Virus record (IMG/VR): IMGVR_UViG_3300009553_000022
Location: 2,630 to 66,629 of that record
Length of the DNA stretch: 64,000 nucleotides
Direction: 5' to 3' (one strand)
From: a virus
In this document: positions 3 to 51,428 of the stretch, piece after piece
Layout: each line of letters starts with the position of its first letter
How positions within the stretch are numbered: the stretch's first letter is position 1
Translations under genes and position numbers: made by a program
Notes under the pieces: generated by a model
Database searches by the model: none
The model's input: the letters and a program-made list of their open reading frames with translations, nothing else
What the model was told of the DNA's origin: nothing

Positions 3-3000
3 ACAGCCCGGGTATTGGATGCTCGCGGTGTTGGTAGCGCGGCGTTTGATGCGGCTTCTGAACTCGGCAAAGGCGCGGCGCATGGCGGAGCGTACGGCGC
101 CGCATTGGGAGCCGGCACAGCCGAAACCAGCGAGGAACGAGCGCACGCGATCGGCGGGGGTATGGCCCTCGGTGCCGCGGGGCGCGTGGGCATGCGCTAC
201 CTTCCTGCAGGCCGCGCGCACAAGATCGCTCAGATGCAGGCGAACGACCTCGCGTCGTTGTTCGAGCGGTTGGAAGGCCAGGGAACTCGTCCGGAGCTGC
301 TGGACAAGCTGCCGTCTCACGCAGCCGACACACTGGCGGCGTACACTGCGGCCGTCGACCCCAGCCTAAAAGTTACTTTGCACGATGACGCCGGATTCGC
401 CGCTGCCGCCCCTGAGCAACCGAACGCCGCCGCGTTTTACAACCCGAAGACCCACGAGGTCGTTCTGAACCTCGACCGCCTGGGGAGTGCCACCGGCCAC
501 GAACTCGGGCACGCTCTGATGTCTGCCCGCAAGGTGGACGGTGAGGCGCGTCTGGCGATTGATTCCGCTCTCGGCACGGACGGCGTTCTGGCTGCGGCCC
601 GCGAATACGCCGGCCAGTTGGTCGACAACGACCTGAAACGCCAGCCCCCGCCGCTCCCCGGGCAGCCCCCGCCACTTCCGCAGGCTCGCGAGCAGCTCAT
701 TGCGAACAAGATTGCACAGCTGACGCAGGCGCATGGCGGCGACGGCTGGGTGTACTCGGAAATTGTCGCAGACGCAGCGAAGAACCAGATCACACCTGAC
801 CTGTATAAGAATACGCTCCGGCCCTCGATGGCGAAGACCGTGCTGGAAGCCCTGGGCGCCAAGGCCCGCGGGGATCTGGCCGGCATGCTGCCGCCTGGCG
901 CGTTGTTTAGCGACGCTCGGATCTACGGCGGCGACATCGCCAAGATGCTGCAAACGCATCTCCGCGAATCTCACCGCGAAGGCATCAAGCCCACGACCGC
1001 GAAAGAGGAAGGCGTCAACGTCCCGTCTGATCTGCTCGGTAAGCACGCTTCTGTTCCAGTTGGCTCGGATGCCGTGAAGGTTGAAGGTAGCGCGATTGTC
1101 CCCCGGACTCCCGCGGAGGTTCGGCAGATTGAGAAGGCGAGACAGCAGGCTGTGAAGCCGATTGTCGACCAGCAGCCGAAGCCCCAGGGCGACGTAAGTC
1201 CCGAGGTGGCTCCGCGTGTTGGTTCGGATGGTACGGTCGAAGTTCGCGGCACCAAGATCAGCGATCAGATCGCCGGACTCCCGCAGTTTTCGGACGAAGC
1301 CAAACGCATCGCGAAGCAGGTCGAGGATGTGATTGCCGGCGGGCAAGGCGGAATTATTCGGACGTGGTACCAAGCCCTCGGCTCCAGCAAGGTCGGCACC
1401 TGGGCGAAGTCTGTACGTAAGAAGCTCGGCAACTGGTCTGTTTCGCAGGTCGACATTGCGCCGTACGAGTTCCATATTTCCGACGCCAACAACGTTCTTG
1501 TGCGTGGAGTATCCCGGACTGCGGCGGAGCAGAAGCTCGCCCGTTGGCAGCAGGAAGGAAAGCTCGACAAGCTCTGGGGCGGTGACGCGGACGCCTTCAG
1601 AAAGGATCTCCACACCTACCTGCAGAACCACGCCCAAGGACTGCGCGGGGCCGTCAACCTCGGCGACGAAGTCCGGGACGCATTAAATCTATTTGTCACT
1701 GGGCAGGCGTCGAAGTTCAAAGACGCGAACCCACTGCGCGCGGACGTCTCAGGCAAGGACAAGAACGGGATCATCCGCTCCATCCGCCTGGACCGCATGG
1801 CGAACCCTGAGCACGTCGAGGGCAGCCTCCCGCTCGACTGGACAAAGCAACAGCGCAATTTTAGCCCGGCGGGCGACGATCCGGTCGTTGCGGCCGCTCT
1901 CCGAACACCCGGCGGCCAGATCTTCAGCGATCGCTGGCATGGCGGCGCAATGATGCAGATCATGGACGCGGCGGGCCGGGGCGAGCTGAAGGAGCCTGCA
2001 TTTGATTTCGAGAATGTCGCGGATGGTTTCGTCACCAAAAGCGGCAAATTCTTGTCCCGCGAGGAAGCTCTGCAGCACGCGCAGGCCCAGGGGCAACTCC
2101 CGGACAGCGCCCGATTTGAAAACGGGCAGCTGGAGTCCGATGCGTTTGCGGCACAGCGCAGTTTCTCCCCGTCGTCTGACTCTTACATCGACGACGCCCG
2201 CGACGTTTTCGCGAGAGCCCCCTCGCTCCAAACGCTCCGCTTCGACCGCGGAACCGGCGAGTTGATCGATCACAAAGGGGACGTTGTTTCCGAGAACGAC
2301 CTGAAGACGTTGGCACCAGGCGTCGACATGGATCGGGTCCGTGGTGCGGTTGTCACACTGACCGCACTGCAGGAGTGGGAAGCGCGGCAGGGCAATCTGT
2401 TTTCGCAGGTCTCGCAAGCCCCTAAAGCTCCTGGCGAGCCCGTCGAAAACCGTAAGGTGTTATACGCACCGTCGAAAGACAAACTCGGTTTCTATTCCCA
2501 GCTCGAAGAGACGTTAAAAGCGATCCCGCCGAAGTCGTCTCCTGCACAGATTCGCGCCATGTTGCGGCAGGGTGTGAAGGAAAAGGGCAAGCTACTCGCG
2601 AAGCCGGTTAAGGCTGAGGAGATGCGCGATACGAAGGCGCCAGACGGGACGACGTTCGAGGAGTGGCTGAACGAGAACCCGAAGGCGACGCTCGACGAGA
2701 TCAAGTCGTGGGCGCAGGTCAACAAGACGAAGGTATACGCCAATGAAGGCGCGAATAAGATCGAGGGAGAAGAGTATACCTCTGAGCCTGAGCCCGTGCG
2801 GTTTCGCGAGGCTCATTACGTTGAGATCGCGCCTGATCATGTATCAGATCACTTCCGTCAAAAAGTCGAAGACGAGTTTCACGACCAATGGGCCGACGAG
2901 GTGCCGGAGGAAATGACCAGGCCCGAGTTTAAGGAGGAAGTTGTGCGGCGGATTGATGCTTATCTTAACGAGCATCCGGTGCGCGAATGGACCGACAACG

Positions 3001-8000: not shown

Positions 8001-8678
8001 CCCGACCTGGATCGACTTCATCCAGTCCGGCGGCGGGGCGAACAGATCGGCCATCTTCTTCGGCGCGACACGGTCCCCGTTCTCGTCTGCCATCCAGATA
8101 AACGTCCAAAAGTCCCCGCTGACGCGGTTCACACAGCCGAGGTCGGTCTTTGCCCCGACTGGGCACGGCCCCATACGGGCGTTGTCCATGAAGTAGAATT
8201 TCCCCTCCCACTGAAAAAGTACGCCGGCGTGGAAGCCCTGGAGACCCCCGAATTGCGACCAGCGGTACAGGATCCGGCGGGCCGGGACGCCTTGCGCCTG
8301 GAGATAGGACACCGTTGTCGTGCTGAAGGGGTCACAATGCATCGGGACCATGTAGTCCGGCAGGTGCTTAAACGACGGCAGCGGGGCAGCCGGGGCACCG
8401 AACGCCAGACTGAGCAGCAACAGAACCAGGGTGAGGATAGGGCCGCCCGCAAACACGGTCTGGATCGTTGCACTTGGGCACTTGCTGCGAACCCGCGCAG
8501 CCGAGACATGGCTCTTGAACTCAAAGGCGTGATCCCGCTTTGTCGTCCACTCCGGGCCGCCTGCGAAGCTGCCATCCCGCACAAAACTACCATCCGCGCT
8601 CCGCGCCCAGCCCGGGCGGGCGGCAACGTACCACGTCTGTTTTAGGTCTCTGCGATATTCAGCCACGATGTACTTCAT
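7962..8678 (-). CDS. Membrane-anchored papain/transglutaminase-like (Cys-His-Asp) protein, moron
   Basis: TM segment ILTLVLLLLSLAFG, then MHCDPF, FHAGVL, YFMDN; has its own promoter. Confidence 0.5.
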   Translation of the reverse strand: MKYIVAEYRRDLKQTWYVAARPGWARSADGSFVRDGSFAGGPEWTTKRDHAFEFKSHVSAARVRSKCPSATIQTVFAGGPILTLVLLLLSLAFGAPAAPLPSFKHLPDYMVPMHCDPFSTTTVSYLQAQGVPARRILYRWSQFGGLQGFHAGVLFQWEGKFYFMDNARMGPCPVGAKTDLGCVNRVSGDFWTFIWMADENGDRVAPKKMADLFAPPPDWMKSIQVGLKQPHVRDLGSR

Positions 8679-8683
8679 ACCGC

Positions 8684-8711
8684 ACAATACGACACTGTCT
8701 GACGTTGTCAA
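8684..8711 (-). promoter_or_regulatory. sigma-70 promoter (TTGACA-N16-TATTGT), near-leaderless, with operator boxes
   Basis: -35 at 8711-8706, -10 at 8689-8684, ATG at 8678. Confidence 0.6.
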
Positions 8712-8738
8712 ACGTGGCTTTTCGTGGTAAGTTACTGA

Positions 8739-13694: not shown

Positions 13695-13703
13695 ACAACG
13701 TTC

Positions 13704-15934: not shown

Positions 15935-16594
15935 TTAGACGTACGAGATCCCGAGTTGGCGACCAAGGTCGGTAAGCATGTCGGTCGGTGGAACGGCAGG
16001 CGGAGAAAAAGCGGCCCCCGGTTGGGAAGCGGTCGTTTCGCGAGCCGCAGGGGCGGCTGGCGCTGATGGCGCTGGGGGCCTGAAGATGACAAGCATGGAC
16101 GGGAATGGGGCGGAGTCCTTGCATCCGCCAAATTTGAGACGGGACCGGATAAATCGGACCTCGGCGTATGGAAGTATGTAGTCGTGGAAAACCGCTTTGT
16201 CGGTGCGTGATGGGAGCAGCATGACAACAGTCGCGCCCTTCTGGGCCTCGGCCCACGCCTTCACGACAAAATCATCCTGCCCGGCCTTGTACTTCGTGTT
16301 GCAGTGGCCGCGTTGTTTACAACGCTTCTTTTTGCAGTTCGGACTGCACACCGCTTCAGCCTCACTGTACGGCGGGTTTACCCATACCGTGTTTGGCGCC
16401 CACTCCTGCCTGAGTGCGTCATCCTGCTCGGTGAAATACTTCGCGACTTTTGCGTTTTCCGCACTCGCCGCCGCATCGAGCGTAAATCGAAACTCGGCGT
16501 CGAGGGGGAGAAACGTTGTGAGCGGGGTTTCCCAGCTATCGGATCCGCCCGTGTCGGCGGAGGAAAACATCACTTTTTTGTCGTGGTCGTTCAT
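15935..16594 (-). CDS. Phage DNA N6-adenine methyltransferase (Dam-like)
   Basis: WETP, FTLDAAAS, WVNPPYS, LLPSRTD, RLKF. Confidence 0.9.
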   Translation of the reverse strand: MNDHDKKVMFSSADTGGSDSWETPLTTFLPLDAEFRFTLDAAASAENAKVAKYFTEQDDALRQEWAPNTVWVNPPYSEAEAVCSPNCKKKRCKQRGHCNTKYKAGQDDFVVKAWAEAQKGATVVMLLPSRTDKAVFHDYILPYAEVRFIRSRLKFGGCKDSAPFPSMLVIFRPPAPSAPAAPAARETTASQPGAAFSPPAVPPTDMLTDLGRQLGISYV

Positions 16595-16608
16595 GGGTTA
16601 GCGTGTTT

Positions 16609-16640
16609 CACAGTGTCAGACAAGAGCAAACGATGTGCCA
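16609..16640 (-). promoter_or_regulatory. sigma-54 promoter P2
   Basis: TGGCACATCGTTTGCT, near-perfect -24/-12, followed by CTTGTCTGACACTGTG. Confidence 0.8.
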
Positions 16641-19743: not shown

Positions 19744-21117
19744 TTAGGATCCGGAGACTTTCTCCGAAATTGCAGGCGCCGATTTTTCCAAGCGAATCGT
19801 CGCGTACTGGATCAGGCCGTCGGCGCGTGTGAGTAAGTTTTCCGCCGAAAGGGTCATCGCCATGATCTCCTTTGCTTGCTTCTTGGTCGACTTGGCCTCG
19901 CGGGCTTGCTCCTTAGCTTCAGCCAGGATCCGCTTTTTCAGCTTCGGATCGCTAGTCTGATTTGCTTTCACGGTGCCAGACTGTAGCAGACCCTGTGCCA
20001 CGTTGTTTGACATGGCGACGTAGCTGTCCGCGAAAACTGCTTCCAACTTGGTTAGCGCGATGTCGCAGCAGCCCAAAACTTGATCGGGGGTTAAGACGTC
20101 TTTCAGCGCCTCAGCGACAAGCGCCGGCTCGTGAACTGACCGATCCCGCTTCCTGGCGCACGCCTTGATGACAACCTCCTGGCCAGGGGCGACCTCCACG
20201 CGAAGCACGCCGTTAGGTTCCGCCTGGGCTAACTCTAACGCTCTCGCCTTTATCCCACTCTTGCTCTCTTCCAGGAGAGTTTCGAGGCGGTCGAGGATGT
20301 AACACGCCTTGGCGACGTCTTCCGGCGTGTGAATTTCTATCGCGCTGAACGTCGACGGCATCGGCAGCGGCTCAGCCTTCTGAACTGCGACCGCTGCGGT
20401 CTGAACGAGTGCGGGACAACTCCCGGCCCGCGAACAAAAATCGCAATACGGATTGACGTTGAGCGTCGGGTTTGGTTGCTGCGCGCTGCGAATGACCCCT
20501 TGAACGGCTGTAAATATATCATATAACTCCTCCCGGCGAAAGCTGGCCGCGGTCGTTTTGTGCAGTTTCGGCTGCACGAACAGCACACCCAGCTTGCCGA
20601 GCTTCGGGAATTTGTGGAACGATCCGAGCGCGTACGCCTTGCCCTGGTAGTTGACTGCGGCAGGTGGTACGGGTATCCAACCGAACTTATGATCAATCAA
20701 GACGCCCGTCGTTCCATCCTTTAAAATGATCAAAACGTCGAGGTGCCCGGCTGTCAGCTCTTGTCCCGTCGGGTCCGGAACTGTCACCCTGATTTCGTTG
20801 TGGATCTCCTCCCAACCTGCCGCGATCCAACGGTCCATTTCCTTGCATGAGAATGCGAGGAGCGTGTAGTCCTCGTCACTGATCGCGAACTCCCCCGACT
20901 GACTTAATTCGTCCAACGCTGTCAGTGTACGCGTGTGCCGCCCCTCCTTCACACGATCGACCAAAACGTCGGCGAGTTCATGCAAACGGGTACCTTCTCG
21001 GGACGCCTCGGACTCGCCGTCGTTAGGCAAGTAGCCGGGACAAGCTGCATAGGCGTTGAGTTTCGACGGCCCGTAGCGGTGATGCGTTCGGGCGGCGTGG
21101 TTAGGTTGTTCGTTCAT
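19744..21117 (-). CDS. DUF2800 / Cas4-like PD-(D/E)XK exonuclease
   Basis: PSK...CPG, GTRLHE, GHLD..IDHKFG, Q..AYA, C..C...CP. Confidence 0.85.
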   Translation of the reverse strand: MNEQPNHAARTHHRYGPSKLNAYAACPGYLPNDGESEASREGTRLHELADVLVDRVKEGRHTRTLTALDELSQSGEFAISDEDYTLLAFSCKEMDRWIAAGWEEIHNEIRVTVPDPTGQELTAGHLDVLIILKDGTTGVLIDHKFGWIPVPPAAVNYQGKAYALGSFHKFPKLGKLGVLFVQPKLHKTTAASFRREELYDIFTAVQGVIRSAQQPNPTLNVNPYCDFCSRAGSCPALVQTAAVAVQKAEPLPMPSTFSAIEIHTPEDVAKACYILDRLETLLEESKSGIKARALELAQAEPNGVLRVEVAPGQEVVIKACARKRDRSVHEPALVAEALKDVLTPDQVLGCCDIALTKLEAVFADSYVAMSNNVAQGLLQSGTVKANQTSDPKLKKRILAEAKEQAREAKSTKKQAKEIMAMTLSAENLLTRADGLIQYATIRLEKSAPAISEKVSGS

Positions 21118-21331
21118 TTGAAATCACTGGATGAAAGCGCGACGCGTCGAGCTTGAACTCGATCTCCATGTTGTCGCCGTCCCCGCCGTGGATGACAGCG
21201 CCGCTCGTTACGCCCTTCACGCGGATTACCCATTTCCCGTCGCTATAACCCCACGCGGCGCCTTCGAGACTGGCGTACACTTGGATCTTGTGTGGCTTGG
21301 TAGGCAGTCCGTTGTCGTTGTGTGTTCTCAC
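21101..21331 (-). CDS. hypothetical protein
   Basis: GTGA overlap with the helicase stop. Confidence 0.5.
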   Translation of the reverse strand: MRTHNDNGLPTKPHKIQVYASLEGAAWGYSDGKWVIRVKGVTSGAVIHGGDGDNMEIEFKLDASRFHPVISNERTT

Positions 21332-22839
21332 GGTGTTAGGTCTCCGTCGTTGAGTAAGTCGATGCGGTCCGCCTTTGCGCGCACGTTCGTCGCGATGCTC
21401 TCCTCCTCGGTGCCGCGGAAGACCAAAAGGTATTGCTGACTGAAACCGCCGCCATCGCGGTTTACGCGACCAAAGCCCTGCTTCAGCAAGTCGGCGCGAT
21501 CAGGCGGCGAGAACAGGCTTACGCGTTCGGTCTGCTTGAAAGGGTCGTGGAAACCGATCCCGACGCCGCCAGCTGCGGTGTTGGCAACGAGCGCAGGCAG
21601 CCGGTTCCCTTGCATGTCCTTCTCGATGTGCCCGCGGTCTTCGGCGGACGTGTCGCCGTCGAGGATCGGGACCTCGCAACCGAGGGCCTTTGATAAGGCC
21701 GCGGCCAACTGCTTCGCGGTCTCGCGGTAGTTCACGAAGCACACCACGGGGCAGGATTGCGCGTAGTCGACGGCAAACTCCTTCATGTCCGGAACCTTCA
21801 GAAGTTCGAGGGCCTGGCGGGCGCGGATCAGCTTCTCCAGGGCGGTTGCCGCGTCGTCCTGCTGGGCTCGGCGCTGCTGGTACAACTCGGCGATCTCGCC
21901 GGCTAAGCGCCGGGCTTTGTCGGTCGGGTCCAGCAGCCGAGCGTCGATGATGGTCTTCGGGAAGCCCGGAATGTCGGCCTTGCGAAGGCGCGCCGCGCGC
22001 GCGGGAAACAGCGTGGAATTGAGATCCAGAATCGCCTGCCGCGCCTCCGCGGCGACGAGCGGGTCGTCAGAGTTCGCAGGGAATTGAAAGCCTCCGAACA
22101 CGCCGGGCTTTACGCCGTGCTTGAAGAGCCACCACTTGTAGTCGCTCAGACTGTGCAATCCGAGGGCGTACCCGAGGGCTTTGAGTTTCAGCGGTGAGTC
22201 GGCGGCCGTCGCCGACATCGTGTGGACGTATCGGAATTGCCGCTTAGCGGCGATCAGCATTTTGCTTTGCAGGCTAGTAGCGCCAGAGCACCGGTCTACC
22301 TCGTCGAAGATCGCCATCTCGTAGGCCTGCCCCCACTGCCAGCGGCTTCCCCTCGCGCACAAAACTTCGTGGCCAAAGGCGGACTCGGTTTCTCGCGGTC
22401 CCAAGGCCCACCGGCAGTTGTTGGGGCTGTACGCTTCGTCCTCGTCTTCCCGCGCGAGCCGTCGCGTCTCCTGAAACTTCGTCGAGCGCGCCCATTCCGC
22501 GAAAACCTCAAACTCTTTCCACTCGGCGCAGCATTGCAGTTGTATTTCTGCCCACGTCTCGGCGAGGGGCTTTTTGATGTAACGGCTAACACCCCGCGCG
22601 TCTTCGTAATTGATGATCTGGGCCGGGACTCCGACCCGCTCCGACCACTCTTCCCAGGAGGGGATCACGGACTTCGGGCAAAGAATCAGCGGCACGCAGT
22701 CGAGGGCTTGGGCAAGTGCTAACGCACACGGCGTCTTCCCGGTGCCTGTGTCGCTGGCGTCGAGGGCCGCGCGGTTCGTGCGGAGCACCTTCAGCAAGTG
22801 CTCGACGTGCGGCTTCTGATATTCGCGGAGGAAGTTCAA
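21328..22839 (-). CDS. SF2 (SNF2-like) helicase
   Basis: DTGTGKT, DEVD, SAT, GGVG, QGFGRVNR. Confidence 0.9.
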   Translation of the reverse strand: MNFLREYQKPHVEHLLKVLRTNRAALDASDTGTGKTPCALALAQALDCVPLILCPKSVIPSWEEWSERVGVPAQIINYEDARGVSRYIKKPLAETWAEIQLQCCAEWKEFEVFAEWARSTKFQETRRLAREDEDEAYSPNNCRWALGPRETESAFGHEVLCARGSRWQWGQAYEMAIFDEVDRCSGATSLQSKMLIAAKRQFRYVHTMSATAADSPLKLKALGYALGLHSLSDYKWWLFKHGVKPGVFGGFQFPANSDDPLVAAEARQAILDLNSTLFPARAARLRKADIPGFPKTIIDARLLDPTDKARRLAGEIAELYQQRRAQQDDAATALEKLIRARQALELLKVPDMKEFAVDYAQSCPVVCFVNYRETAKQLAAALSKALGCEVPILDGDTSAEDRGHIEKDMQGNRLPALVANTAAGGVGIGFHDPFKQTERVSLFSPPDRADLLKQGFGRVNRDGGGFSQQYLLVFRGTEEESIATNVRAKADRIDLLNDGDLTP

Positions 22840-23039: not shown

Positions 23040-23110
23040 GTCAGCGCAACAAAGAGCAGCATGCCGAGGCCGATCGCAGTGGCGGCCAACCACAGACGGA
23101 AAAATTTCAT
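23036..23110 (-). CDS. 24-aa single-TM peptide
   Basis: MKFFRLWLAATAIGLGMLLFVALT; ATGA overlaps at both ends. Confidence 0.55.
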   Translation of the reverse strand: MKFFRLWLAATAIGLGMLLFVALT

Positions 23111-23325
23111 TCGCCGAACACAGAGCCGCGGGGTTTGATGCCGACGAATCCGGCGACGGACGCGTCGAGGGTCTTGCGCCCTCCATTGTGTACCTCTGTC
23201 GCCGCCTCGATCCGCTCCATGACGAAGCGATCCAGGAGGGCCAGGAAATCGGCGCCGACGCGTTTACCCCGGGCCTTGGCACGGGCTTTAACTTTTGACA
23301 CGACTAGGAACTGTGGTTTTCTCAT
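23107..23325 (-). CDS. Bacterial-type histone-fold protein (in frame with the HNH gene)
   Basis: LVVSKVK...RVGADFLALLDRFV...GGRKTL resembles Bd0055/HBb-like histones; A-rich leader before the ATG. Confidence 0.65.
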   Translation of the reverse strand: MRKPQFLVVSKVKARAKARGKRVGADFLALLDRFVMERIEAATEVHNGGRKTLDASVAGFVGIKPRGSVFGE

Positions 23326-23847
23326 GCTATTTTTGGGTTTATTTTTGCGACTGCGGCGCGTGTTCTGCGCCTGCTCACAAAGTGGGATCCAGCAGCAGTT
23401 ATCTGGGCAGTAGTTTCCGTTGACCTCCCTGCGCTCTATGGTGAGGTCTTCCCGGAAACCGGACCCACGAGCCCACTGAGCGAAAGGAATGAATTCCTCC
23501 CACTCAGGGCAAATCGTGATCCCCCGGCCTCCGTAGCTGTGGAAATTAGGGTCCTTGGGGTTGCGGCAACGCTGCCGCATGTTGGTCCAAACCTTGTGCA
23601 GGGGCGTCTTTGTCTCGCCGTGAACGCGGAACCGGGTCGCGTTAAGCCGGCCTTTTTCTCGGGCGGCGCAGCCGCAAGACGTCGTATTGCCCGCGCGGAG
23701 GTTGTCGAACCTCGCCACAAATTCGGTTCCGCAGTCGCACCGCACTTGCCGGTAACGCGTGGGGAACTGCTGCCCGTGCGTGGCGCCGGGGCCTAGAATG
23801 ACAACCCGCCCGTAACGCTCGGGATCCGATGTTTGTCTAGGTCTCAC
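23107..23847 (-). CDS. HNH-like homing endonuclease, read through in frame into the histone-fold domain
   Basis: CDCG, SCGC, W..MRQRC, YGGRGITICPEW, IER..VNGNY.P.NC.W; GTG at +4 of promoter P3. Confidence 0.75.
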   Translation of the reverse strand: MRPRQTSDPERYGRVVILGPGATHGQQFPTRYRQVRCDCGTEFVARFDNLRAGNTTSCGCAAREKGRLNATRFRVHGETKTPLHKVWTNMRQRCRNPKDPNFHSYGGRGITICPEWEEFIPFAQWARGSGFREDLTIERREVNGNYCPDNCCWIPLCEQAQNTRRSRKNKPKNSMRKPQFLVVSKVKARAKARGKRVGADFLALLDRFVMERIEAATEVHNGGRKTLDASVAGFVGIKPRGSVFGE

Positions 23848-23876
23848 AGCGTCAGACATGAGCAGACGCCGTGCCA
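23845..23876 (-). promoter_or_regulatory. sigma-54 promoter P3, head of the replication operon
   Basis: TGGCACGGCGTCTGCT followed by CATGTCTGACGCTGTG. Confidence 0.8.
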
Positions 23877-23879
23877 CGT

Positions 23880-24120
23880 TTTGAGAACTTAGGGCACCCT
23901 TGAACTAGCCGGCCTGAACTTAGATCCTGGGGTTTTGCCGAAAAGAGTAGGCAAAAACAGAGAAGGGCCGCCGGGGTAAAAACCGCTTGATCTCCTTGTC
24001 AGACGTGGTTTACTACGGCCTGACAGTGTACCGAGTCACACTTTAAACATAATTCTGCGACCCGCGCAATAGCCCCGAAAACCGCTTAATTTTAACCGTA
24101 ACTTGCCGATTGAACTAGCG
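23880..24120. other. Candidate attP / regulatory intergenic region
   Basis: Non-coding, upstream of the integrase. GAACT(T)AG four times, AAAACCGCTT twice, imperfect hairpin at 23997-24025. Confidence 0.35.
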
Positions 24121-24123
24121 TAT

Positions 24124-24372
24124 ATGAGCCACCAACATACATGGGTCCTGGCGGTCCTGGAAGAGGGCCGCGTCAGCCAACACATCGAAATCCGGTCGTT
24201 CCCGTCCCGCCGCGAGGCGCTTCTCGCCCTGGGCAGTTACGGCGAGGCCTGGCCCGGAGAGTCGCAGCAACGGTTCCTAGACGCCGTAAACGGCGATCAA
24301 CTGGACGTTGCCGAAGTCGTCGCGGGGAACAACTTCACTCTGACCTGGACAATCAAATCGACCGCCCTATGA
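24124..24372 (+). CDS. hypothetical protein
   Basis: ATGA overlap with the integrase. Confidence 0.55.
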   Translation: MSHQHTWVLAVLEEGRVSQHIEIRSFPSRREALLALGSYGEAWPGESQQRFLDAVNGDQLDVAEVVAGNNFTLTWTIKSTAL

Positions 24373-25514
24373 GCAGCCGATGGGAAACAACCAAAGTGCC
24401 GGGCATCCGCCGCGACAAAGCGACTGGGATGCTTTACCTGAACAAGAGCGTCAACGGTCGAGTCTACGGCGAGAGCCTGAAGACGACGGACCTCGCGGTC
24501 GCGAAGCAGAAGTTTTTCGCACGCCTCGCGGAGCTGGCAAGCGAGCCCCGCCCGATAGCCCCGAAGCCCGAGCGGTATTCCCTGGGTGAGATCCTCGACA
24601 CTTACGCCGCCCGGCTCGACGCGGAGCACGGCTCCCTCGACCCGAAAACCATCAAGCGGAAGAAGTGGACGCTGTCGACGATCGTCTCGACCTGGGGCGA
24701 AGTGCCGGTCCTCAAGACCCGCGGCGTCGGTAGCTTCCGCAGTCTCCCCGCGAAGCGCGTCAGCTATGACGACCTCCTGGCGTGGCGGAAGCATTTCATC
24801 GACCCGAAGGGCGGCAACTTCAAGCCGTCGTATTTCAACCTCGTCCGCGATGTCCTCGAAGAGGTGTTTGACCTGGCTGTCGAGTTCGGGCAGATCCGCG
24901 AGAATCCCGTTTGTCGTCTCAGCGTCGCAGCGGTGCCCCGCGCGCATTACGTCCTGCCGACTGGTGAACAGTGGGCGGCGATGCTGGCCAAGATCGACAC
25001 GGCGACCGAGGTCGGTCAGAACTGCCGCGACTTGCTCGAAGGGCTGTCGTTGACGGGACTGCGGATCAGCGAGGCGTATGCTCTGCGCGTCGAGATGGTT
25101 GACCTGGAAGCCCGCGAGGTTCGCTTGCCGGCCGCGATTGTCAAAGGCCGTAACGGGCGAAGGAACGGACGGACGATCGATCTTATTCCCGAAGCTCACG
25201 CACTCATGACGCGGCTTGTCGCGACCGCTGGCCCGGACGGGCTGATCTTCAAAGCCGAGGGACGACGCACATTGACGCGCATCTGCAAGGAAGCTGGCTG
25301 GACAGCGAAATTTACTCTCCACTCGTGCCGACATTTCTTCGCGACGCGGATGCTTGAATCGGGCGTGCCGGTACAGACCGTTGCGGAATGGATGGGACAT
25401 CAGGACGGCGGCACGCTGCTACTGAAGACCTACACGCATCTTTGCCGGCGGCATGGGAAGGCGGCTGCGGCGAAGGTTACGATTTTCCCGGGCGAGAAGA
25501 AGGACGCAGTCTAA
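24369..25514 (+). CDS. int: Tyrosine recombinase / integrase
   Basis: TGLRISE, K, HSCRH, MGH, KTY catalytic residues. Confidence 0.92.
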   Translation: MSSRWETTKVPGIRRDKATGMLYLNKSVNGRVYGESLKTTDLAVAKQKFFARLAELASEPRPIAPKPERYSLGEILDTYAARLDAEHGSLDPKTIKRKKWTLSTIVSTWGEVPVLKTRGVGSFRSLPAKRVSYDDLLAWRKHFIDPKGGNFKPSYFNLVRDVLEEVFDLAVEFGQIRENPVCRLSVAAVPRAHYVLPTGEQWAAMLAKIDTATEVGQNCRDLLEGLSLTGLRISEAYALRVEMVDLEAREVRLPAAIVKGRNGRRNGRTIDLIPEAHALMTRLVATAGPDGLIFKAEGRRTLTRICKEAGWTAKFTLHSCRHFFATRMLESGVPVQTVAEWMGHQDGGTLLLKTYTHLCRRHGKAAAAKVTIFPGEKKDAV

Positions 25515-25932: not shown

Positions 25933-26269
25933 ATTTCTGAACGTCCTTCTTCCGCACTAAATACGGCCGGAATGGCTTCAACGAAGCGGTGCAGACTAGG
26001 CACTCCTCCCGTCGGCCTGTGGCTGAACCCTGTTCGTATTCTGGCGGCCCATCAAGAGAGCGGTGCTCCCGGCCCCTTCGGAATTTGTAATTGTCGACGA
26101 TCGCCATTCTCAAGCCGATCACGTACCCGGTGCCGGACTCGCACAGCGGCGTCGGCGAAGCCTGCCGGACACACCCCTGGCCGTGAACGTAGTCACTCAA
26201 AAAGCGTTCGGAGCAAGTCATGCCGTAGGCCGGCCCGTGTTCGATTTTCTGGCCAATGAAATAGTTCAA
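25910..26269 (-). CDS. hypothetical protein
   Basis: TTGA overlap with the activator stop. Confidence 0.5.
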   Translation of the reverse strand: MNYFIGQKIEHGPAYGMTCSERFLSDYVHGQGCVRQASPTPLCESGTGYVIGLRMAIVDNYKFRRGREHRSLDGPPEYEQGSATGRREECLVCTASLKPFRPYLVRKKDVQKYADITAS

Positions 26270-27153
26270 GCTACCTCCTTCAACGTAATCCCAAGAGCTG
26301 CCAGCTTCGCACGGCCCCCATCCCGGTTGACGCCCAGGGCCTCACTAAACTGCGTGACGTTCCCAGCCTCAGCCCAGACAGCCCGCAAGGCGGCCTCGTC
26401 GAGGCATGCGTCCGGTATGGTTCCCAGGAGCAGCAACCGCGACAGCCAGCCGAACAGCTCCCGACAGTTCCCTGTCCAGGGCCGCGTCTGCAGGTCGAGC
26501 AATATCTCCGGCGAGAGCACGGGAACCGGAAGCTTATGCCTCTTCGCTTCGGCTGCGAGGAACTGGGCCGCGAGGGCTCCCAGGTCTTCCGGCCGTTCCC
26601 GCAATGGTGGAATCTCCAGGGTGAAGGCGGCGAGGCGATGATAGAGGTCGGCGCGGAGCTTGCCGGACTTGATTGTGGCGGCTGGGTCGACATTCATCGC
26701 CGCGACGATCCGCACGTCGACAAATTCGTCTCGGTCGCTGCCCAGGGAGCGCACCCGACTATCCTGGAGGGTCCGCAAGAGCTTCGACTGCGCCTGAGCC
26801 GGCATCTCCGACAGCTCGTCGAGGAACAGCGTCCCGCCAGATGCCGCGCGGAACAGGCCCAGCCGCGACGTTACAGAGCCCGTATACGCGCCCCGCTGCG
26901 CGCCGAACAGCTCGCTTTCAATTAAATCGGCAGGAAGCGCCGCACAGTTCAGCGAAACCTTCGGCCCCGCGGCGCGGGGGCTATTGCCGTGGATCAGGTT
27001 CGCGAAGACCTCCTTGCCCGTCCCCGTCTCACCCAGGACGAGAACAGGGACATCAAATTTAGCGAGATGCACAGCCTTACGGGCAAGTGCCTGAATGGCC
27101 GGACTAGCAAAGATAGGGACCAAGCGAGTTTCATAAAGGTGCCGTCCTGGCAA
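26266..27153 (-). CDS. Sigma-54-dependent transcriptional activator (bEBP AAA+ plus Fis-type HTH, no sensor domain)
   Basis: GETGTGKE, LNCAA, ESELFG..RGAYTGS, GGTLFLDE, QSKLLR, RADLYHRL, PPLRER, WTGNCREL; C-terminal GNVTQFSEALGV..KL. Confidence 0.95.
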   Translation of the reverse strand: MPGRHLYETRLVPIFASPAIQALARKAVHLAKFDVPVLVLGETGTGKEVFANLIHGNSPRAAGPKVSLNCAALPADLIESELFGAQRGAYTGSVTSRLGLFRAASGGTLFLDELSEMPAQAQSKLLRTLQDSRVRSLGSDRDEFVDVRIVAAMNVDPAATIKSGKLRADLYHRLAAFTLEIPPLRERPEDLGALAAQFLAAEAKRHKLPVPVLSPEILLDLQTRPWTGNCRELFGWLSRLLLLGTIPDACLDEAALRAVWAEAGNVTQFSEALGVNRDGGRAKLAALGITLKEVA

Positions 27154-27162
27154 GGTTGATGG

Positions 27163-27327
27163 TTAAAGGACGACCTGCTCGCGGACCCGAACGCCGTGGC
27201 GCCGCAGGCTCTCCGACAGTTGGCTGGCGAAGGCATCGGCGTCCTGCCGGGTGTAAAACGTGCCACACTCCCCCCAACCGTCCCACCGGCCAGGGCCTAT
27301 TTTAGTCTCAACAACGTATTGCTTCAT
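27163..27327 (-). CDS. hypothetical 54-aa protein, first gene of the activator operon
   Basis: MKQYVVETK...; ATG just after a -10 element. Confidence 0.55.
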   Translation of the reverse strand: MKQYVVETKIGPGRWDGWGECGTFYTRQDADAFASQLSESLRRHGVRVREQVVL

Positions 27328-27334
27328 GCATGAC

Positions 27335-27415
27335 ACGGTAGCACCATGCACTACGTTGTCAAACGCACGAACACAAAACAATACATTGACAACTCCCGTG
27401 GGCAGCCGATAAACC
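27335..27415. promoter_or_regulatory. Divergent sigma-70 promoters
   Basis: Minus: TTGACA (27362-27357)-N16-TACCGT with TGn. Plus: TTGACA (27386-27391)-N18-TAAACC (weak -10) before ATG 27422. Confidence 0.55.
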
Positions 27416-27421
27416 TGTGGT

Positions 27422-27724
27422 ATGAAAAGCAGCGTACGACAAAAGCCTGACCAAAAAATAGATCGGACGAGACCCGAGCAGTTCGCGGTGCGAATCACGG
27501 ACAACCTGCGGTCGCGTGTCGAGGCCGTCGCCGCAGCCTTATCCAACGAAGCGCAAACGACTACCATATCCGACGTTGCCCGACGCTGTCTAGTCGGGCA
27601 TTTGCCGGTGCTGGAGCGTGAACTCGGGCTTGTTGAAAACCGGCCGCAGTCGGCGGAAACGGATACAACGCAGTGGGTCGCGGAAGCGAAAAAGCGCGCA
27701 ACTAAAGCCAATGCCAAAGTCTAA
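27422..27724 (+). CDS. Ribbon-helix-helix (Arc/CopG-like) regulator, candidate repressor
   Basis: EQFAVRI strand, then helices TDNLRSRVEAVA and TISDVARRCL. Confidence 0.65.
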   Translation: MKSSVRQKPDQKIDRTRPEQFAVRITDNLRSRVEAVAAALSNEAQTTTISDVARRCLVGHLPVLERELGLVENRPQSAETDTTQWVAEAKKRATKANAKV

Positions 27725-27744
27725 CGGGTGGGACAAAAGTAGAA

Positions 27745-28146
27745 TTGCAGAGGCACCGCGGGACGGTATGGATACGGTGCATGCAGATAATCGGCAACCA
27801 GTTTGAACTTTTTTGGGTGAGCGACTCGGACGGATCCGGCTGGACCCTTAGCCGGGCGCTACAAACGCACCTCGGGCTGTCGCATGTCAGCTCGTACGAG
27901 GATGTGCTGGCCGCGGTGCATCCCAGGGACCAGCGGCGCGTCCGGCAGCAACTCGAATCGGCCCGCAGCGCACGGGACGGCATTACGCTGAAGTTCAAGG
28001 TTTGGCTGCCAAGCAACCAGGTTTTTGCCCAGGCGAGGCTAGTCGGCTGGCCGCGGTTCATAAACGGGAATACCTTCCTGGGCCACATCGGTTTTTGGCG
28101 TATCAAACTCCCATCGGCCCCGCCCGATATCGGAGATCTCAACTAA
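27745..28146 (+). CDS. Stand-alone PAS-domain protein
   Basis: FWVSD.DG...S......LG......VHPRDQRRV...FKV...G..G matches a PAS_3-type pattern; start may be ATG 27781. Confidence 0.65.
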   Translation: MQRHRGTVWIRCMQIIGNQFELFWVSDSDGSGWTLSRALQTHLGLSHVSSYEDVLAAVHPRDQRRVRQQLESARSARDGITLKFKVWLPSNQVFAQARLVGWPRFINGNTFLGHIGFWRIKLPSAPPDIGDLN

Positions 28147-28178
28147 ATTGCCTTGCGCTGCACAGCTTTGTATCATCT

Positions 28179-28220
28179 TGTCAAACACAGTTTGACAACG
28201 TCGCACGCATGAACTATTCT
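28179..28220 (+). promoter_or_regulatory. sigma-70 promoter with palindromic operator
   Basis: TGTCAAACA-C-AGTTTGACA; TTGACA-N17-TATTCT. Confidence 0.75.
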
Positions 28221-29161: not shown

Positions 29162-29212
29162 GTCAAATTGTGTCTGACAGAGTTTGACAAAGTAACCTAA
29201 GCGGATTAGGAT
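29161..29212 (+). promoter_or_regulatory. sigma-70 leaderless promoter with three tandem boxes
   Basis: Boxes at 29161, 29171 and 29181; TTGACA-N17-TAGGAT-N6-ATG. Confidence 0.75.
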
Positions 29213-29218
29213 ACCGGC

Positions 29219-30019
29219 ATGGGAACGACAACCGAAAAACTCCTCCGCTGGGCCGACTACATCGTGATCAACACCTCGGCGGGCAAAGACTCGCAGGCGA
29301 TGATGGACTACGTTTGCCGCCTCGCATTTTCAGCCGGCATGCTGCACAAGGTCGTCGCCGTCCACGCCGACCTGGGCCGCGTCGAATGGAAGGGCACCCG
29401 CGAGCTGGCCGAGGAGCACGCCAAGTACTACGGCATTCCGTTCCACGTCGTCCGTCGCGAGAAGGGCGACCTCCTGGAGCAGGTCGAGGCGCGCGGCATG
29501 TGGCCGGACAGCGGCAACCGCTACTGCACCAGCGACCAGAAGCGCGACCAAGTGGCCAAGTTCCACACGCAGCTTTCCCTCAAACCGGTTGTCCCCGGGC
29601 GCCGCGTCCGCATCCTTAACTGCATGGGCTTCCGCAAAGACGAGAGCCCGGCCCGCGCGAAACGCCGCCCTGTCCAGGCGGACAGCCGCACGACAAACGG
29701 CAAGAAGGCCGTGCTGAACTGGCTCCCGATCCACACCTGGAGCGTCGATCTCGTCTGGAGCACGATCCGCGCCTCCGGCGTCCCCCATCATTACGCCTAC
29801 GACAAGGGCATGCCCAGGCTGTCCTGCTGCTTCTGCATCTTCGCCCCTAAGGACGCCTTGGTCATCGCAGGCCGGGAGAACCCGGAGCTTCTCGCGGAGT
29901 ACGTGCGGGTCGAGGCGAAGATCGGCCACAGCTTCCGAAACAAATTCAAGATCGCGGAGGTCCAGGAGGCGATCGCCGCAGGCTACCAACCCAAGAACGT
30001 TCAAAACTGGACAATGTAA
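29219..30019 (+). CDS. PAPS-reductase-family (PP-loop) protein
   Basis: SAGKDS, RYCT...K, GFR.DES..R, LPI..W, RLSCCFC. Confidence 0.85.
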   Translation: MGTTTEKLLRWADYIVINTSAGKDSQAMMDYVCRLAFSAGMLHKVVAVHADLGRVEWKGTRELAEEHAKYYGIPFHVVRREKGDLLEQVEARGMWPDSGNRYCTSDQKRDQVAKFHTQLSLKPVVPGRRVRILNCMGFRKDESPARAKRRPVQADSRTTNGKKAVLNWLPIHTWSVDLVWSTIRASGVPHHYAYDKGMPRLSCCFCIFAPKDALVIAGRENPELLAEYVRVEAKIGHSFRNKFKIAEVQEAIAAGYQPKNVQNWTM

Positions 30020-30909
30020 TGAAAGCTGTTGATTTATTCGCGGGCGCTGGCGGGTTCTCCACTGGCGCGAAGATGGCCGGCGTCGATGTCGTATGGGCGG
30101 CGAACCACTGGCGCGCAGCCGTCGACTGTCATGCGGCGAATCACCCCAGCGTCGCGCACATGTGCCAGGACCTGCATCAAGCCGACTGGAATCAGGTCCC
30201 AGCGCACGACGTCCTGCTGGCGTCTCCGTCCTGCCAGGGGCATGCCAAGGCCCGCGGGAAGGAGCGGCCCCACCACGACGCCGCGCGGTCTACCGCCTGG
30301 GCCGTCGTCTCCTGCGCCGAGGTTCACCGCCCGGAATTTGTCGTTGTCGAGAATGTCCCCGAGTTTCGGCGCTGGCTCCTTTACCCGGCGTGGACGCAGG
30401 CGATGAACGCCCTGGGCTACTCCACCGCGGAGCACGTTATCAACGCCGCCGACCACGGCGTCCCTCAATCCCGCGTGCGCCTGTTCGTCGTATGCTCGCG
30501 GAGCAAGGCGCCCCTGCAGCTGAAGTTCCAGCCGAAGGCCCACGTCCCGGCTAGCTCGTTCATCACAGCCCCAGGGACGACTCCCGTCAGCTCGCTGTGC
30601 GCCCGTTCCCAGGCCCGCATAGCAAACGGCCGCGCGGAGCACGGCAGCCGGTTTCTCATGGCTTATTTTGGCACGGAGAAGGGCGGGCGGAGCCTTAACG
30701 CACCCCTCGGCACCGTCACCACGCGCGACCGGTACGCCCTGGTCGACGGCGACAACTGCCGGATCCTGACCGTTGACGAGTACCGGCAGGCAATGGGGTT
30801 CCCCGACTACCAGCTGCCGGCCAACAAGAAGCTCGCGAAGCACCTGCTCGGCAACGCGGTTTGTCCGCCTGTGGCCCGCGATATCCTCCTGCAACTGGCT
30901 AAGAACTAG
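30019..30909 (+). CDS. DNA cytosine-C5 methyltransferase
   Basis: DLFAGAGG, SPSCQG, VENV, PQSR.R, GNAV. Confidence 0.92.
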   Translation: MKAVDLFAGAGGFSTGAKMAGVDVVWAANHWRAAVDCHAANHPSVAHMCQDLHQADWNQVPAHDVLLASPSCQGHAKARGKERPHHDAARSTAWAVVSCAEVHRPEFVVVENVPEFRRWLLYPAWTQAMNALGYSTAEHVINAADHGVPQSRVRLFVVCSRSKAPLQLKFQPKAHVPASSFITAPGTTPVSSLCARSQARIANGRAEHGSRFLMAYFGTEKGGRSLNAPLGTVTTRDRYALVDGDNCRILTVDEYRQAMGFPDYQLPANKKLAKHLLGNAVCPPVARDILLQLAKN

Positions 30910-30914
30910 GCCTT

Positions 30915-30976
30915 TGTGAGACACGGTAAAATAATGTCAGACAACGTTTGACAACGTAACCGAACCGGCTTAGGAT
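30915..30976 (+). promoter_or_regulatory. sigma-70 promoter with tandem boxes
   Basis: TGTCAGACA-A-CGTTTGACA; TTGACA-N17-TAGGAT. Confidence 0.75.
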
Positions 30977-30985
30977 AGCGACGCA

Positions 30986-31255
30986 ATGAGCAAGAAACTC
31001 TGGACCGGAAAGACCGCGAGACAAGAACTGTTCAGCTTCGTGCAGATACGCGCTGCGGCGAGCGACTGGGACATAAACGACGCCTTCGAGAGTGTCCTAG
31101 ACGGCGCGGAAGGCTGCCCAGACGGGTCGCTGAAACGCGAGATGCTGCGTTACTGGGAAGGCCTCGACTGGCGCGCCCAGGGGCGTCTCATCAGCGAAAT
31201 TCGAGCCGCCGTACGCCGTGGCGACCGCCTCGCGGGCCTTAAAATCCAACGCTAA
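30986..31255 (+). CDS. hypothetical early protein
   Basis: ATG just after the promoter. Confidence 0.6.
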   Translation: MSKKLWTGKTARQELFSFVQIRAAASDWDINDAFESVLDGAEGCPDGSLKREMLRYWEGLDWRAQGRLISEIRAAVRRGDRLAGLKIQR

Positions 31256-38367: not shown

Positions 38368-38727
38368 TCAGGGGACGATGATGGGAGAAGACGCCTGGGC
38401 CTTCGGCGCGCGGCGGCGGCGCTGGAGAATGGCCTCGCACCACGCAGCCGCGACAGCAGCCACCTGGACGAGTTCTGTATACAGCTGGCGGTCTCGCTCC
38501 TCCTCGGTCGTCAGGACGCCGTTGCGGTAGTCACACAGCGCACGGGCGACTTCCCCGTTCTCCTCCGCGAGGACAGTGTAGCGCGCCTCGTCCAAGACGT
38601 TGGGGGCCGCACAGGTCCAGGCAAATTTGCCTGACTTGCATAGAACCTCCTGGCGCTCGCGCTCCGCGATGATGTCGTTCAGGACGGCTAGGCGAGCCGC
38701 GGCTCCGAGTTTGTCAGTGTCAGTCAC
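38368..38727 (-). CDS. MazG-like nucleotide pyrophosphohydrolase
   Basis: ER.RQ, LAEENGEVA, ELVQVAAVA..W.E; GTG at +4 of P4. Confidence 0.7.
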   Translation of the reverse strand: MTDTDKLGAAARLAVLNDIIAERERQEVLCKSGKFAWTCAAPNVLDEARYTVLAEENGEVARALCDYRNGVLTTEEERDRQLYTELVQVAAVAAAWCEAILQRRRRAPKAQASSPIIVP

Positions 38728-38777
38728 AGTCCCAGACATGAGCAGCCGGTGTGCCAACGTTTGACGCTGTCAGACAG
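38725..38777 (-). promoter_or_regulatory. sigma-54 promoter P4 with upstream boxes
   Basis: TGTCTGACAGCGTCAAACGT-TGGCACACCGGCTGCT-CATGTCTGGGACTGTG. Confidence 0.75.
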
Positions 38778-40767: not shown

Positions 40768-40811
40768 TGTCTGACACTGTGGCACGGCGTCTGCTCATGT
40801 CTGGAGGTGTG
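40768..40811 (+). promoter_or_regulatory. sigma-54 promoter P5
   Basis: TGTCTGACACTG-TGGCACGGCGTCTGCT-CATGTCTGGAGGTGTG. Confidence 0.8.
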
Positions 40812-44557: not shown

Positions 44558-44611
44558 TGTCTGACATTGACTGAAACCGTGGCACGGTAGCTGCTCTTGT
44601 CTGACACTGTG
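44558..44611 (+). promoter_or_regulatory. sigma-54 promoter P6
   Basis: TGGCACGGTAGCTGCT (44580-44595) followed by CTTGTCTGACACTGTG; upstream box at 44558. Confidence 0.8.
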
Positions 44612-44836
44612 AAACGTCTACTGACACAAGTTCGCATCTGGTTGATGCGGTATCACGCGGAGTTCCTCCTGCAACGCGTTCTCGCCGAAATCGATCGGAT
44701 CGATGCGATCCAATACGCGAACATTCGTCGCGATCGCGAAATCATTCGTCTTTCCCAAGAAGCCGACAAACTCGAAGCCTCCCTTGACGCGGAGAGCCGA
44801 CGCCGCAAACGCGCCTTCTTGGAACTCCCGGACTAG
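44609..44836 (+). CDS. hypothetical coiled-coil protein
   Basis: GTG at +4 of P6. Confidence 0.55.
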   Translation: MKRLLTQVRIWLMRYHAEFLLQRVLAEIDRIDAIQYANIRRDREIIRLSQEADKLEASLDAESRRRKRAFLELPD

Positions 44837-51166: not shown

Positions 51167-51209
51167 GTTTGACACGTTGGCACGGAGTCTGCTCCTGTCT
51201 AACGCTGTG
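51167..51209 (+). promoter_or_regulatory. sigma-54 promoter P7, upstream of scaffold/capsid genes
   Basis: GTTTGACACGT-TGGCACGGAGTCTGCT-CCTGTCTAACGCTGTG. Confidence 0.8.
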
Positions 51210-51428
51210 AAACTAATGCCAATAGATCACGAAGCGGAGCGTCGTGTATTATCGACGCTCCCGAATTCTCCCGCCCATGCCGTGATCCACAACGCGCTGG
51301 CTCGTGATATTGAGGCAGCTCGGTCCAAGTTGGAAACCTGCAGCAGCGCCGAGTTGTGCCAGATTCAGGCTGAAATTTTAGTCCGCCGGCAGCTCGTCGG
51401 CTGGCTTGCAACGACCCACAAACGCTAA
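51207..51428 (+). CDS. small protein between portal and scaffold
   Basis: GTG at +4 of P7; helical. Confidence 0.55.
   Translation: MKLMPIDHEAERRVLSTLPNSPAHAVIHNALARDIEAARSKLETCSSAELCQIQAEILVRRQLVGWLATTHKR

Follow-up and report, generated by a model that had tools for sequence, protein, structure and literature searches.

A divergent early promoter region joining a stand-alone PAS domain protein and a putative small DNA binder to a sensor-less sigma-54 activator operon in a soil phage

The 64,000-nucleotide stretch of viral DNA analyzed in the present study (hereafter the window; positions 2,630 to 66,629 of the IMG/VR record IMGVR_UViG_3300009553_000022) contains a compact control region in which two sigma-70-type promoters face away from each other. 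To the left of them lie genes for a 54-aa protein and for a sigma-54 activator without a sensory domain, i.e., a sensor-less bacterial enhancer-binding protein (bEBP), and to the right lie genes for a 100-aa protein, which is probably a small DNA binder, and for a 121-aa protein that consists of a lone PAS domain. We propose, with a probability of roughly 0.4, that a temperate soil phage controls its early genes from this divergent region and that the locus works as a switch between opposing arms, in which the 100-aa protein would be the repressor and the PAS protein its subunit.

The promoters are recognized from two TTGACA hexamers placed back to back at 27362-27357 on the minus strand and at 27386-27391 on the plus strand, spaced 23 bp. 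In the leftward promoter, P_L (27335-27362, minus strand), the hexamer serves as the -35 box and is followed, after a 16-nt spacer, by the -10 box TACCGT (27340-27335). Only 7 nt separate this -10 box from the ATG of the 54-aa open reading frame (ORF), and the mRNA from P_L is likely to be leaderless or nearly so. The rightward promoter, P_R (27386-27413, plus strand), also has a 16-nt spacer, with the -10-like sequence GATAAA at 27408-27413, and the ATG at 27422 of the 100-aa ORF comes 8 nt after it. Divergent TTGACA promoters had been claimed in an earlier note made from the sequence of the window; both hexamers were indeed located and are kept, together with the -10 boxes and the start codons, in two related loci found in metagenomes, L001 (1.7 kb) and L002 (20 kb). 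The -10 box of P_L is even closer to the consensus in these relatives (TTGACA-16-TACACT in L001 and TTGACA-16-TACAAT in L002), and the sequences CATTGACA and CCGATAAAC of P_R are invariant across the three loci. Because a generic sigma-70 promoter scan listed neither P_L nor P_R among its matches, the support for the two promoters consists of their conservation and of the family resemblance described below. The gene order in L001 and L002 is that of the window, namely integrase, variable small genes, bEBP (minus strand), 53-aa protein (minus strand), 100-aa protein (plus strand), PAS protein (plus strand), and DUF932 gene (plus strand). The synteny check suggested in the earlier note therefore turned out in its favor, with the layout of four genes and two promoters kept in three of three related loci.

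P_L belongs to a family of early promoters. Its -35 box is embedded in the 12-mer GTTTGACAACGT (as GTTTGACAAMGT), of which five exact copies exist in the window against 0.00 expected, and the other four copies of GTTTGACAAMGT, at 8702 (minus strand), 28190, 29182, and 30946, precede other early genes. The compound pattern TTGACA-16/17-TAnnnT-4..10-ATG, in which the start codon lies 4-10 nt past the -10 box, occurs four times against 0.02 expected, i.e., at 8676-8711 and 27325-27362 (P_L) on the minus strand and at 29184-29221 and 30948-30988 on the plus strand. Given this enrichment, the early transcripts look leaderless, and the promoter calls and the start codons support each other. The next early promoter to the right of the pair, that of the DUF932 gene, has TTGACA at 28192-28197 and the -10 box TATTCT on the plus strand, and its -35 box is overlapped by the palindrome TTGTCAAAC-ACA-GTTTGACAA at 28178-28220 (plus strand).

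The leftward operon opens with the 54-aa protein (27163-27327, minus strand; ORF from the ATG at 27327) and continues with the bEBP (26266-27153, minus strand), and the ORF order given in the earlier note was thereby borne out. L001 and L002 each encode a 53-aa homologue of the 54-aa protein in the corresponding position, and 21 columns of the alignment are invariant; no family for it was found in Pfam, PHROGs, NCBIfam, or PADLOC, and the Atlas search gave nothing above 0.88. The bEBP was matched by Pfam Sigma54_activat (E 4.7e-59, profile positions 4-167 of 168) and AAA_lid_14 (8.2e-10) as well as by phrog_7998 (E 2.8e-43), and its loop GAYTGS, which is of the GAFTGA type, stands in the context ...FGAQRGAYTGSV...; the same variant is present in locus L054. 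The AAA+ sigma-54 interaction domain and the cognate -24/-12 promoters in the genome place the protein in the bEBP family. Pfam detects no N-terminal regulatory domain, the AAA+ domain beginning at residue 16 of the longest ORF, and the protein is accordingly sensor-less in the manner of PspF and HrpS. Its true start probably lies some 10-27 codons inside the ORF, and the database gene call is 268 aa long. A Fis-like helix-turn-helix (HTH) at the C terminus was read by eye from the sequence and the alignment consensus, and Pfam HTH_8 was not detected in the protein. The closest relative is the bEBP of the L002 phage (69% identical), while cellular bEBPs are about 50% identical; 66 relatives among cultured-phage records, all below 60% identity, were set aside, many of them being bacterial contigs filed as phage. 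Since the bEBP lacks a sensory domain, its control in trans is plausible. As a separate observation, 78 other viral contigs in IMG/VR (loci L003-L080), some of which may include host DNA, carry bEBP relatives with 33-57% identity. A simple screen of ORFs and motifs found short bEBP ORFs (235-304 aa) without a large N-terminal domain in 22 of the 78, and 19 of these 22 have a GAFTGA-type loop. Judging from these sequences, phage-borne sensor-less bEBPs look widespread and have been little described.

The motif TGGCAC-N5-YTGCW, which is expected 0.14 times, has eight exact matches, each on the strand of the downstream genes. Seven of the eight show an extended form, ...AAACG-TGGCAC-N5-YTGCT-NN-TGTCTGACACTGTGAAAC, in which the 18-bp element TGTCTGACACTGTGAAAC directly follows the -12 box; this 18-mer itself has nine matches with up to three mismatches against 0.03 expected. 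The sigma-54 promoters lie on the minus strand at 16605-16640 (site 16625), 19985-20000, 23841-23876 (site 23861), and 38709-38756 (site 38741), and on the plus strand at 40780-40795, 44580-44615, and 51178-51213. The one at 23841-23876, which reads TGGCACGGCGTCTGCT and then TGTCTGAC...GTGAGAC, is upstream of HNH, helicase, and replication genes. A degenerate ninth copy is found at 13700 (minus strand), and the match at 42886, which is without the shared flanks and inside a NUDIX-like ORF, was taken as chance. The L002 phage has the same build, with CGGCAC-N5-YTGCT and the same downstream element. No sigma-54 gene is present in the record. The left arm of the genome, on the minus strand, encodes a family-A DNA polymerase, a DUF2800/PD-(D/E)XK nuclease, a helicase, and an HNH endonuclease, and the right arm, on the plus strand, encodes the large terminase, portal, major head, and tail-fibre genes; the tyrosine integrase and the divergent control region are situated between them. 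Because the sigma-54 promoters precede genes for replication (those of HNH, helicase, nuclease, and PolA), packaging, and the head (those of terminase, portal, and head proteins), it is very likely that the bEBP, acting together with the host sigma-54, is the master activator of the middle and late, i.e., lytic, program. A search for a bEBP enhancer motif upstream of these promoters found no common 8-mer except for the TGTCTGAC family.

The element downstream of the sigma-54 promoters recurs at the early promoters. In inverted form it supplies the -35 box of sigma-70-type promoters (GTTTGACAACGTCAGACA at 8696-8713), and the element family as a whole overlaps the -35 box at five early promoters and, at the sigma-54 promoters, the start region. 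Just upstream of the sigma-70-type promoters, partial copies of the element in 10-bp phase or the 9-bp palindrome TGTCNGACA, which occurs 10 times against 0.95 expected, are found. We prefer to read the shared element as a possible operator of the 100-aa protein, since short palindromes with a 10-bp phase are the kind of site that suits ribbon-helix-helix (RHH) proteins. As a side observation, at one of the sites, 16590-16625 on the minus strand, the conserved GTG of the downstream element opens a mini-ORF of six codons whose stop overlaps the ATG of the next gene (ATGA), which may reflect near-leaderless translational coupling or may be meaningless.

The 100-aa protein (27422-27724, plus strand) is basic in its N-terminal arm and in a conserved C-terminal helix, and apart from the bEBP no other candidate DNA binder is encoded in the region. 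Its homologues in L001, L002, and P0005 are 59-67% identical to it, and as their N-terminal 22 residues are conserved, the 100-aa form is favored over the 78-aa database call. Between L001 and L002 the gene shows one nonsynonymous and eight synonymous differences, with 99 of the 100 residues identical, which argues that the protein is under purifying selection. Among its language-model neighbors in the Atlas (0.93-0.95), 8 of 30 are MetJ, two CB_ParB_C, and one RHH_1, all of a single clan, and we take this as a lead only. On balance we lean toward regarding the protein as a probable small DNA binder, for which an RHH fold is plausible. Arc and Mnt of phage P22 and MetJ are RHH repressors, and Arc and Mnt control the antirepressor rather than the primary switch of P22. 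The 100-aa protein is similar to them in being of repressor size, in its basic N-terminal arm, and in its place in a phage control region, and the candidate operators are short palindromes or tandem repeats with a phase of about 10 bp; it differs in that no test of sequence or structure places it in the RHH superfamily.

The second gene of the rightward pair (27781-28146, plus strand) encodes the stand-alone PAS domain protein, of PAS_3 type. Its start is most likely the ATG at 27781, which gives 121 aa, and not the TTG at 27745, because the database gene call and both homologues start there. The AlphaFold2 model, built from three sequences, has a predicted local distance difference test score (pLDDT) of 81.9 and a predicted template-modeling (pTM) score of 0.73, and shows the canonical order of strands (7-14, 20-23, 68-76, 81-94, and 98-109) and helices (25-31, 39-43, and 48-64). 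A PAS domain has about 100-120 residues, and its antiparallel sheet of five strands (order B-A-I-H-G) is flanked by helices C, D, E, and F. Foldseek retrieved 72 Protein Data Bank (PDB) chains at E<=1e-3, and all of those listed are PAS or LOV domains, with a probability of 1.00 and a template-modeling (TM) score of 0.6-0.7. VIA-align, an independent comparison, gave a Z score of 14.3 for the PAS/PAC sensor domain 3h9w (root-mean-square deviation 2.8, 106 residues aligned), and all 50 of its rows are PAS or LOV domains. The model therefore identifies the protein as a genuine PAS domain; this upholds the earlier description of a lone PAS-like protein with a VHPRD motif, which is situated at residues 46-50, and the fold prediction that had been proposed as a check gave a PAS fold. 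The fold spans residues 1-112 of the 121, with no further domain. At the sequence level, Pfam PAS_3 (PF08447) covers only residues 39-86 of the 133-aa form and reaches 17.4 bits (E 0.0055), below its cut-off of 25.6. Among 1.84 billion representatives, 196 proteins were matched at E<=1e-3, down to 7e-18, by a profile of the three family sequences. Of the best 150 of these 196 matches, 149 are outside the protein's own cluster, are 297-2528 aa long, and contain several matched stretches each; eight matches were sampled, six of which are multi-PAS_3 proteins and two are spurious BNR-repeat proteins. By its sequence, then, the protein is a divergent relative of PAS_3 rather than a scored member, and is homologous to the PAS_3 repeats of sensor kinases. 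The stand-alone family comprises three known sequences, that of the window and two from metagenome contigs, and no relatives were found in viral contigs, genome contigs, or cultured-phage records. Photoactive yellow protein (PYP) and short LOV proteins such as PF5-LOV and VVD resemble it in that a single PAS domain makes up the whole protein, and short LOV proteins are among the structural matches. They differ in that the present protein has no Cys to which a chromophore could be attached and is of PAS_3 type by sequence: the three family members have 0, 0, and 1 Cys, none conserved, and the absence of Cys from the protein of the window excludes a covalent chromophore of the LOV or PYP type.

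The tyrosine integrase (24369-25514, plus strand; Pfam Phage_integrase, E 3.3e-19; phrog_1, E 3e-38) is convergent with the leftward operon and occupies the same position in L002. The earlier note had pointed out that no CI repressor of the HTH-S24 type is visible despite the integrase, and this holds for the whole 66.6-kb record, which is estimated to be 76% complete. In the six-frame translation, PF00717 (Peptidase_S24), PF01381 (HTH_3), and PF13560 (HTH_31) gave no match at E<=1 and HTH_17 was not found; positive controls of these searches were recovered in 12-14 of 14 genomes. Nor was any DNA-binding family found in twenty further ORFs. What suggests a lysis-lysogeny switch is the integrase together with the geometry of the locus. 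In lambda, the start sites of the divergent promoters PRM and PR are about 82 bp apart, and the cI mRNA from PRM is leaderless. The present locus resembles the lambda CI/Cro region in its divergent promoters, with start sites about 94 bp apart, in the leaderless transcript, and in the nearby integrase, but it has no gene between the promoters and no HTH-S24 repressor was found; the lytic arm is headed by an antiterminator in lambda, whereas here it is headed by a sigma-54 activator.

A possible mode of action can be outlined as follows. P_L and P_R would give two divergent leaderless transcripts that set up the opposing arms. The left arm would supply the 54-aa protein and the bEBP, which together with the host sigma-54 would fire at least seven phage promoters as the lytic master activator. 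The right arm would supply the small DNA binder, probably RHH-like, and the single-domain PAS_3 protein; in L002 the PAS gene is followed by one for superinfection immunity. The 100-aa protein might then repress P_L, and probably other promoters with the shared TGTCTGAC/TGTCAAAC element, and the PAS protein might be a subunit for protein interaction or signal input that belongs to the 100-aa protein or, alternatively, to the bEBP. In such a complex the beta-sheet of the PAS protein (strands A, H, and I) could dock on the conserved C-terminal tail of the 100-aa protein or on the bEBP, and the variable helical half could set the input. The genes, the PAS and bEBP folds, the promoter motifs, and the synteny are shown by the data; we infer the binding partners, the repression, the sensing, and the control of lysogeny in this scheme. 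The pattern of conservation is consistent with it: the invariant residues of the PAS family are concentrated in strands A, H, and I, at 34 of 50 positions (38 of 54 with the HPRD motif), whereas in helices C/D/E and F only 8 of 38 positions are invariant. A complex prediction of the bEBP plus two copies of the 100-aa protein, with the PAS protein as partner, scored 0.27, short of the mark of 0.32, and carries no weight either way.

The choice of the bEBP as the partner leads to a different explanation, which seems improbable to us. The PAS protein might be an anti-activator that holds the sensor-less bEBP inactive until a signal arrives, with the 100-aa protein setting promoter levels only. 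NifL-NifA, PspA-PspF, and HrpV-HrpS are systems in which an AAA+ sigma-54 activator is set by a separate protein, and PspF and HrpR/S are themselves sensor-less, as is the present bEBP. In agreement with such a role, the PAS model aligns to the NifL PAS domain with a Z score of 10.7, albeit among many other PAS domains, and the divergent operons always co-occur. However, NifL is a large multidomain protein with PAS domains and acts through its C-terminal domain, which is absent from the bare PAS domain found here, and the three systems are cellular, while the present activator is phage-borne and appears to drive phage replication and late genes. In addition, the PAS gene is cotranscribed with the gene of the 100-aa protein and not with that of the bEBP, whose operon has a conserved candidate partner of its own in the 54-aa protein; alignment of the PAS family with one PAS-bearing bEBP (P0254) by hhalign showed no likeness (probability 0.1). 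In the 78 other bEBP-bearing viral loci, no relative of the PAS, 100-aa, or 54-aa protein exists within 6 kb.

The comparison of L001 with L002 raises another alternative. Across the bEBP, 53-aa, 100-aa, and DUF932 genes their DNA is 86-100% identical, apart from a single 50-nt bin where the 53-aa gene starts (74%), but the identity drops to 46-56% in the PAS core and the slot that follows it (851-1250 in L001 and about 10060-10700 in L002), the only strongly divergent stretch. The PAS proteins of the two loci share 70 of 114 residues (61%), 37 of the 70 identical residues are encoded by changed codons, and synonymous change is saturated. A diverged core between near-identical flanks argues for an old allele moved by recombination rather than for recent divergence, and the PAS core seems to behave as a swappable cassette. 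One possibility, which we hold to be doubtful but the most serious competitor of the switch with a PAS subunit, is that the PAS gene is a moron, i.e., an accessory gene carried in a variable slot between the control region and the early genes, and that it acts on the host or on competing phages. The 100-aa protein would then be a Cro-like early regulator, and the maintenance repressor would be a host factor or the product of a gene at another place. In L002 this slot also contains an Imm_superinfect gene (E 4.3e-19; directly after the PAS gene and on the same strand), the PAS protein of L001 has a hydrophobic C-terminal tail, and small uncharacterized PAS proteins are present in other uncultured phages; the rightward pair heads the rightward early genes, and the record is incomplete. 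On the other hand, the PAS gene is present in all three loci directly after the gene of the 100-aa protein, its N- and C-terminal strands are highly conserved, which points to a conserved partner encoded by the phage, no match to known defense families was found by PADLOC, and the record yielded no further repressor candidate. The divergence pattern agrees equally well with two readings, a docking sheet that is kept constant beside a variable input half, and an accessory gene in a hot spot. The earlier note had proposed the PAS protein as a sensor acting in trans on the bEBP or the RHH protein; this idea is reasonable, with the accessory gene as its rival. A stronger version of the switch, in which the swappable PAS domain reads a small-molecule or redox cue independently of SOS and gates the RHH-like repressor or the bEBP, which through the host sigma-54 would turn on all of replication and morphogenesis, with the core exchanged between near-identical phages to change the cue, is in our view unlikely.

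The arrangement of the rightward pair also calls to mind a toxin-antitoxin-like module, in which an RHH antitoxin with a disordered C-terminal tail would precede a 121-aa toxin. The order and the sizes of the genes resemble those of type II modules (a small binder with a tail, and then about 120 aa), and the two are on the same strand with a gap of 56 nt. We nevertheless give this explanation hardly any weight, considering that the would-be toxin is a PAS domain by fold and profile and not a known toxin fold, that neither protein matches toxin families in PADLOC or Pfam, and that the 100-aa protein is nearly unchanged while the partner alleles differ by 39%.

Several observations weigh against the assignment of the 100-aa protein as the repressor and the PAS protein as its subunit. 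The RHH label given to the 100-aa protein in the earlier note found no backing in tests of family or structure: none of the four members has a Pfam match at E<=10, NCBIfam and profile searches of the PDB gave no match, and RHH_1 gave none in the six-frame translation of the record. The AlphaFold2 monomer is all helical with a pLDDT of 56.7, which is uninformative for an obligate dimer. The shared element may be the binding site of the bEBP or an intrinsic part of the promoters or leaders instead of an operator of the 100-aa protein. With a 99%-identical 100-aa protein beside a 61%-identical PAS protein, the pair is not tightly coevolving, and the PAS gene lies at a hot spot of recombination, as accessory genes typically do. 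The position of the two genes is Cro-like rather than CI-like, because they head the rightward early genes and no terminator is predicted before the DUF932 gene. Because the record is about three-quarters complete and has many ORFs of unknown function, another repressor may exist. Finally, no integrated copy was found among 185,579 species genomes.

As for the rest of the record, it is linear, 66,629 bases long, has a GC content of 60.7%, and contains no tRNA genes. Near-identical DNA was seen in several rhizosphere and soil metagenome runs, among which no RNA run is listed; Logan contigs of four of the DNA runs are fragments without a host junction and are uninformative on integration and expression. 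Upstream of the integrase gene, the region 23880-24130 is a candidate attP, with an AT-rich stretch and with copies of CTAGTTCAA at 23900 and 24110 (minus strand) and of AAAACCGCTT at 23981 and 24079, and two copies of CTAGTTCAA are found at the matching place in L002. Residues 101-150 encoded by the helicase ORF (21328-22839, minus strand) match HNH-endonuclease PHROGs and resemble the adjoining free-standing HNH gene (23107-23877), so that this part may be an inserted or shared domain. At 29219-30909 (plus strand), a PAPS-reductase-like gene, which matches BrxP (E 6.8e-17) and, weakly, SspD and DndC, is followed by a C-5 cytosine methyltransferase gene, with one early promoter for both, and the two probably have a function in DNA modification or antirestriction. 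An ORF of 2078 aa occupies the left end of the window (15-6251, plus strand).

The closest functional precedent is VqmA_Phage of vibriophage VP882, a quorum-sensing PAS-HTH receptor that binds the autoinducer DPO and launches lysis via the antirepressor Qtip (PMC8284805). The likeness is that of a phage-encoded PAS domain whose position would link the choice between lysis and lysogeny to a small molecule, not to SOS alone; the difference is that the HTH is fused to the PAS domain in VqmA_Phage, whereas here the 121-aa PAS domain is alone and the candidate DNA binder is a separate gene. Beyond the PAS fold, the two proteins have no sequence relation. Sigma-54 regulators have been touched on in phages: one phage has such a regulator as a passing annotation (PMC3391216), and a T4-type bEBP-like protein without the GAFTGA loop is described (bioRxiv 10.64898/2026.10.06.757011). 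Searches of the open-access literature yielded no account of phages that encode their own bEBP along with a set of sigma-54 promoters, and none in which a stand-alone PAS protein takes part in a phage switch; a search for RHH immunity repressors of temperate phages listed nothing relevant.

Phage decision circuits that heed signals other than DNA damage are, to our knowledge, few, VqmA of VP882 and arbitrium being the known cases. A lytic program that runs on the host sigma-54 and a phage-made activator is a strategy that has hardly been described, and the near-leaderless early promoters point to a host that translates leaderless mRNAs well. If the PAS protein gates the switch, the locus would represent a compact design in which sensor and effector are split and the input is exchangeable. 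If it does not, the sigma-54 promoters and the leaderless early promoters of this phage still make a clean set for study.

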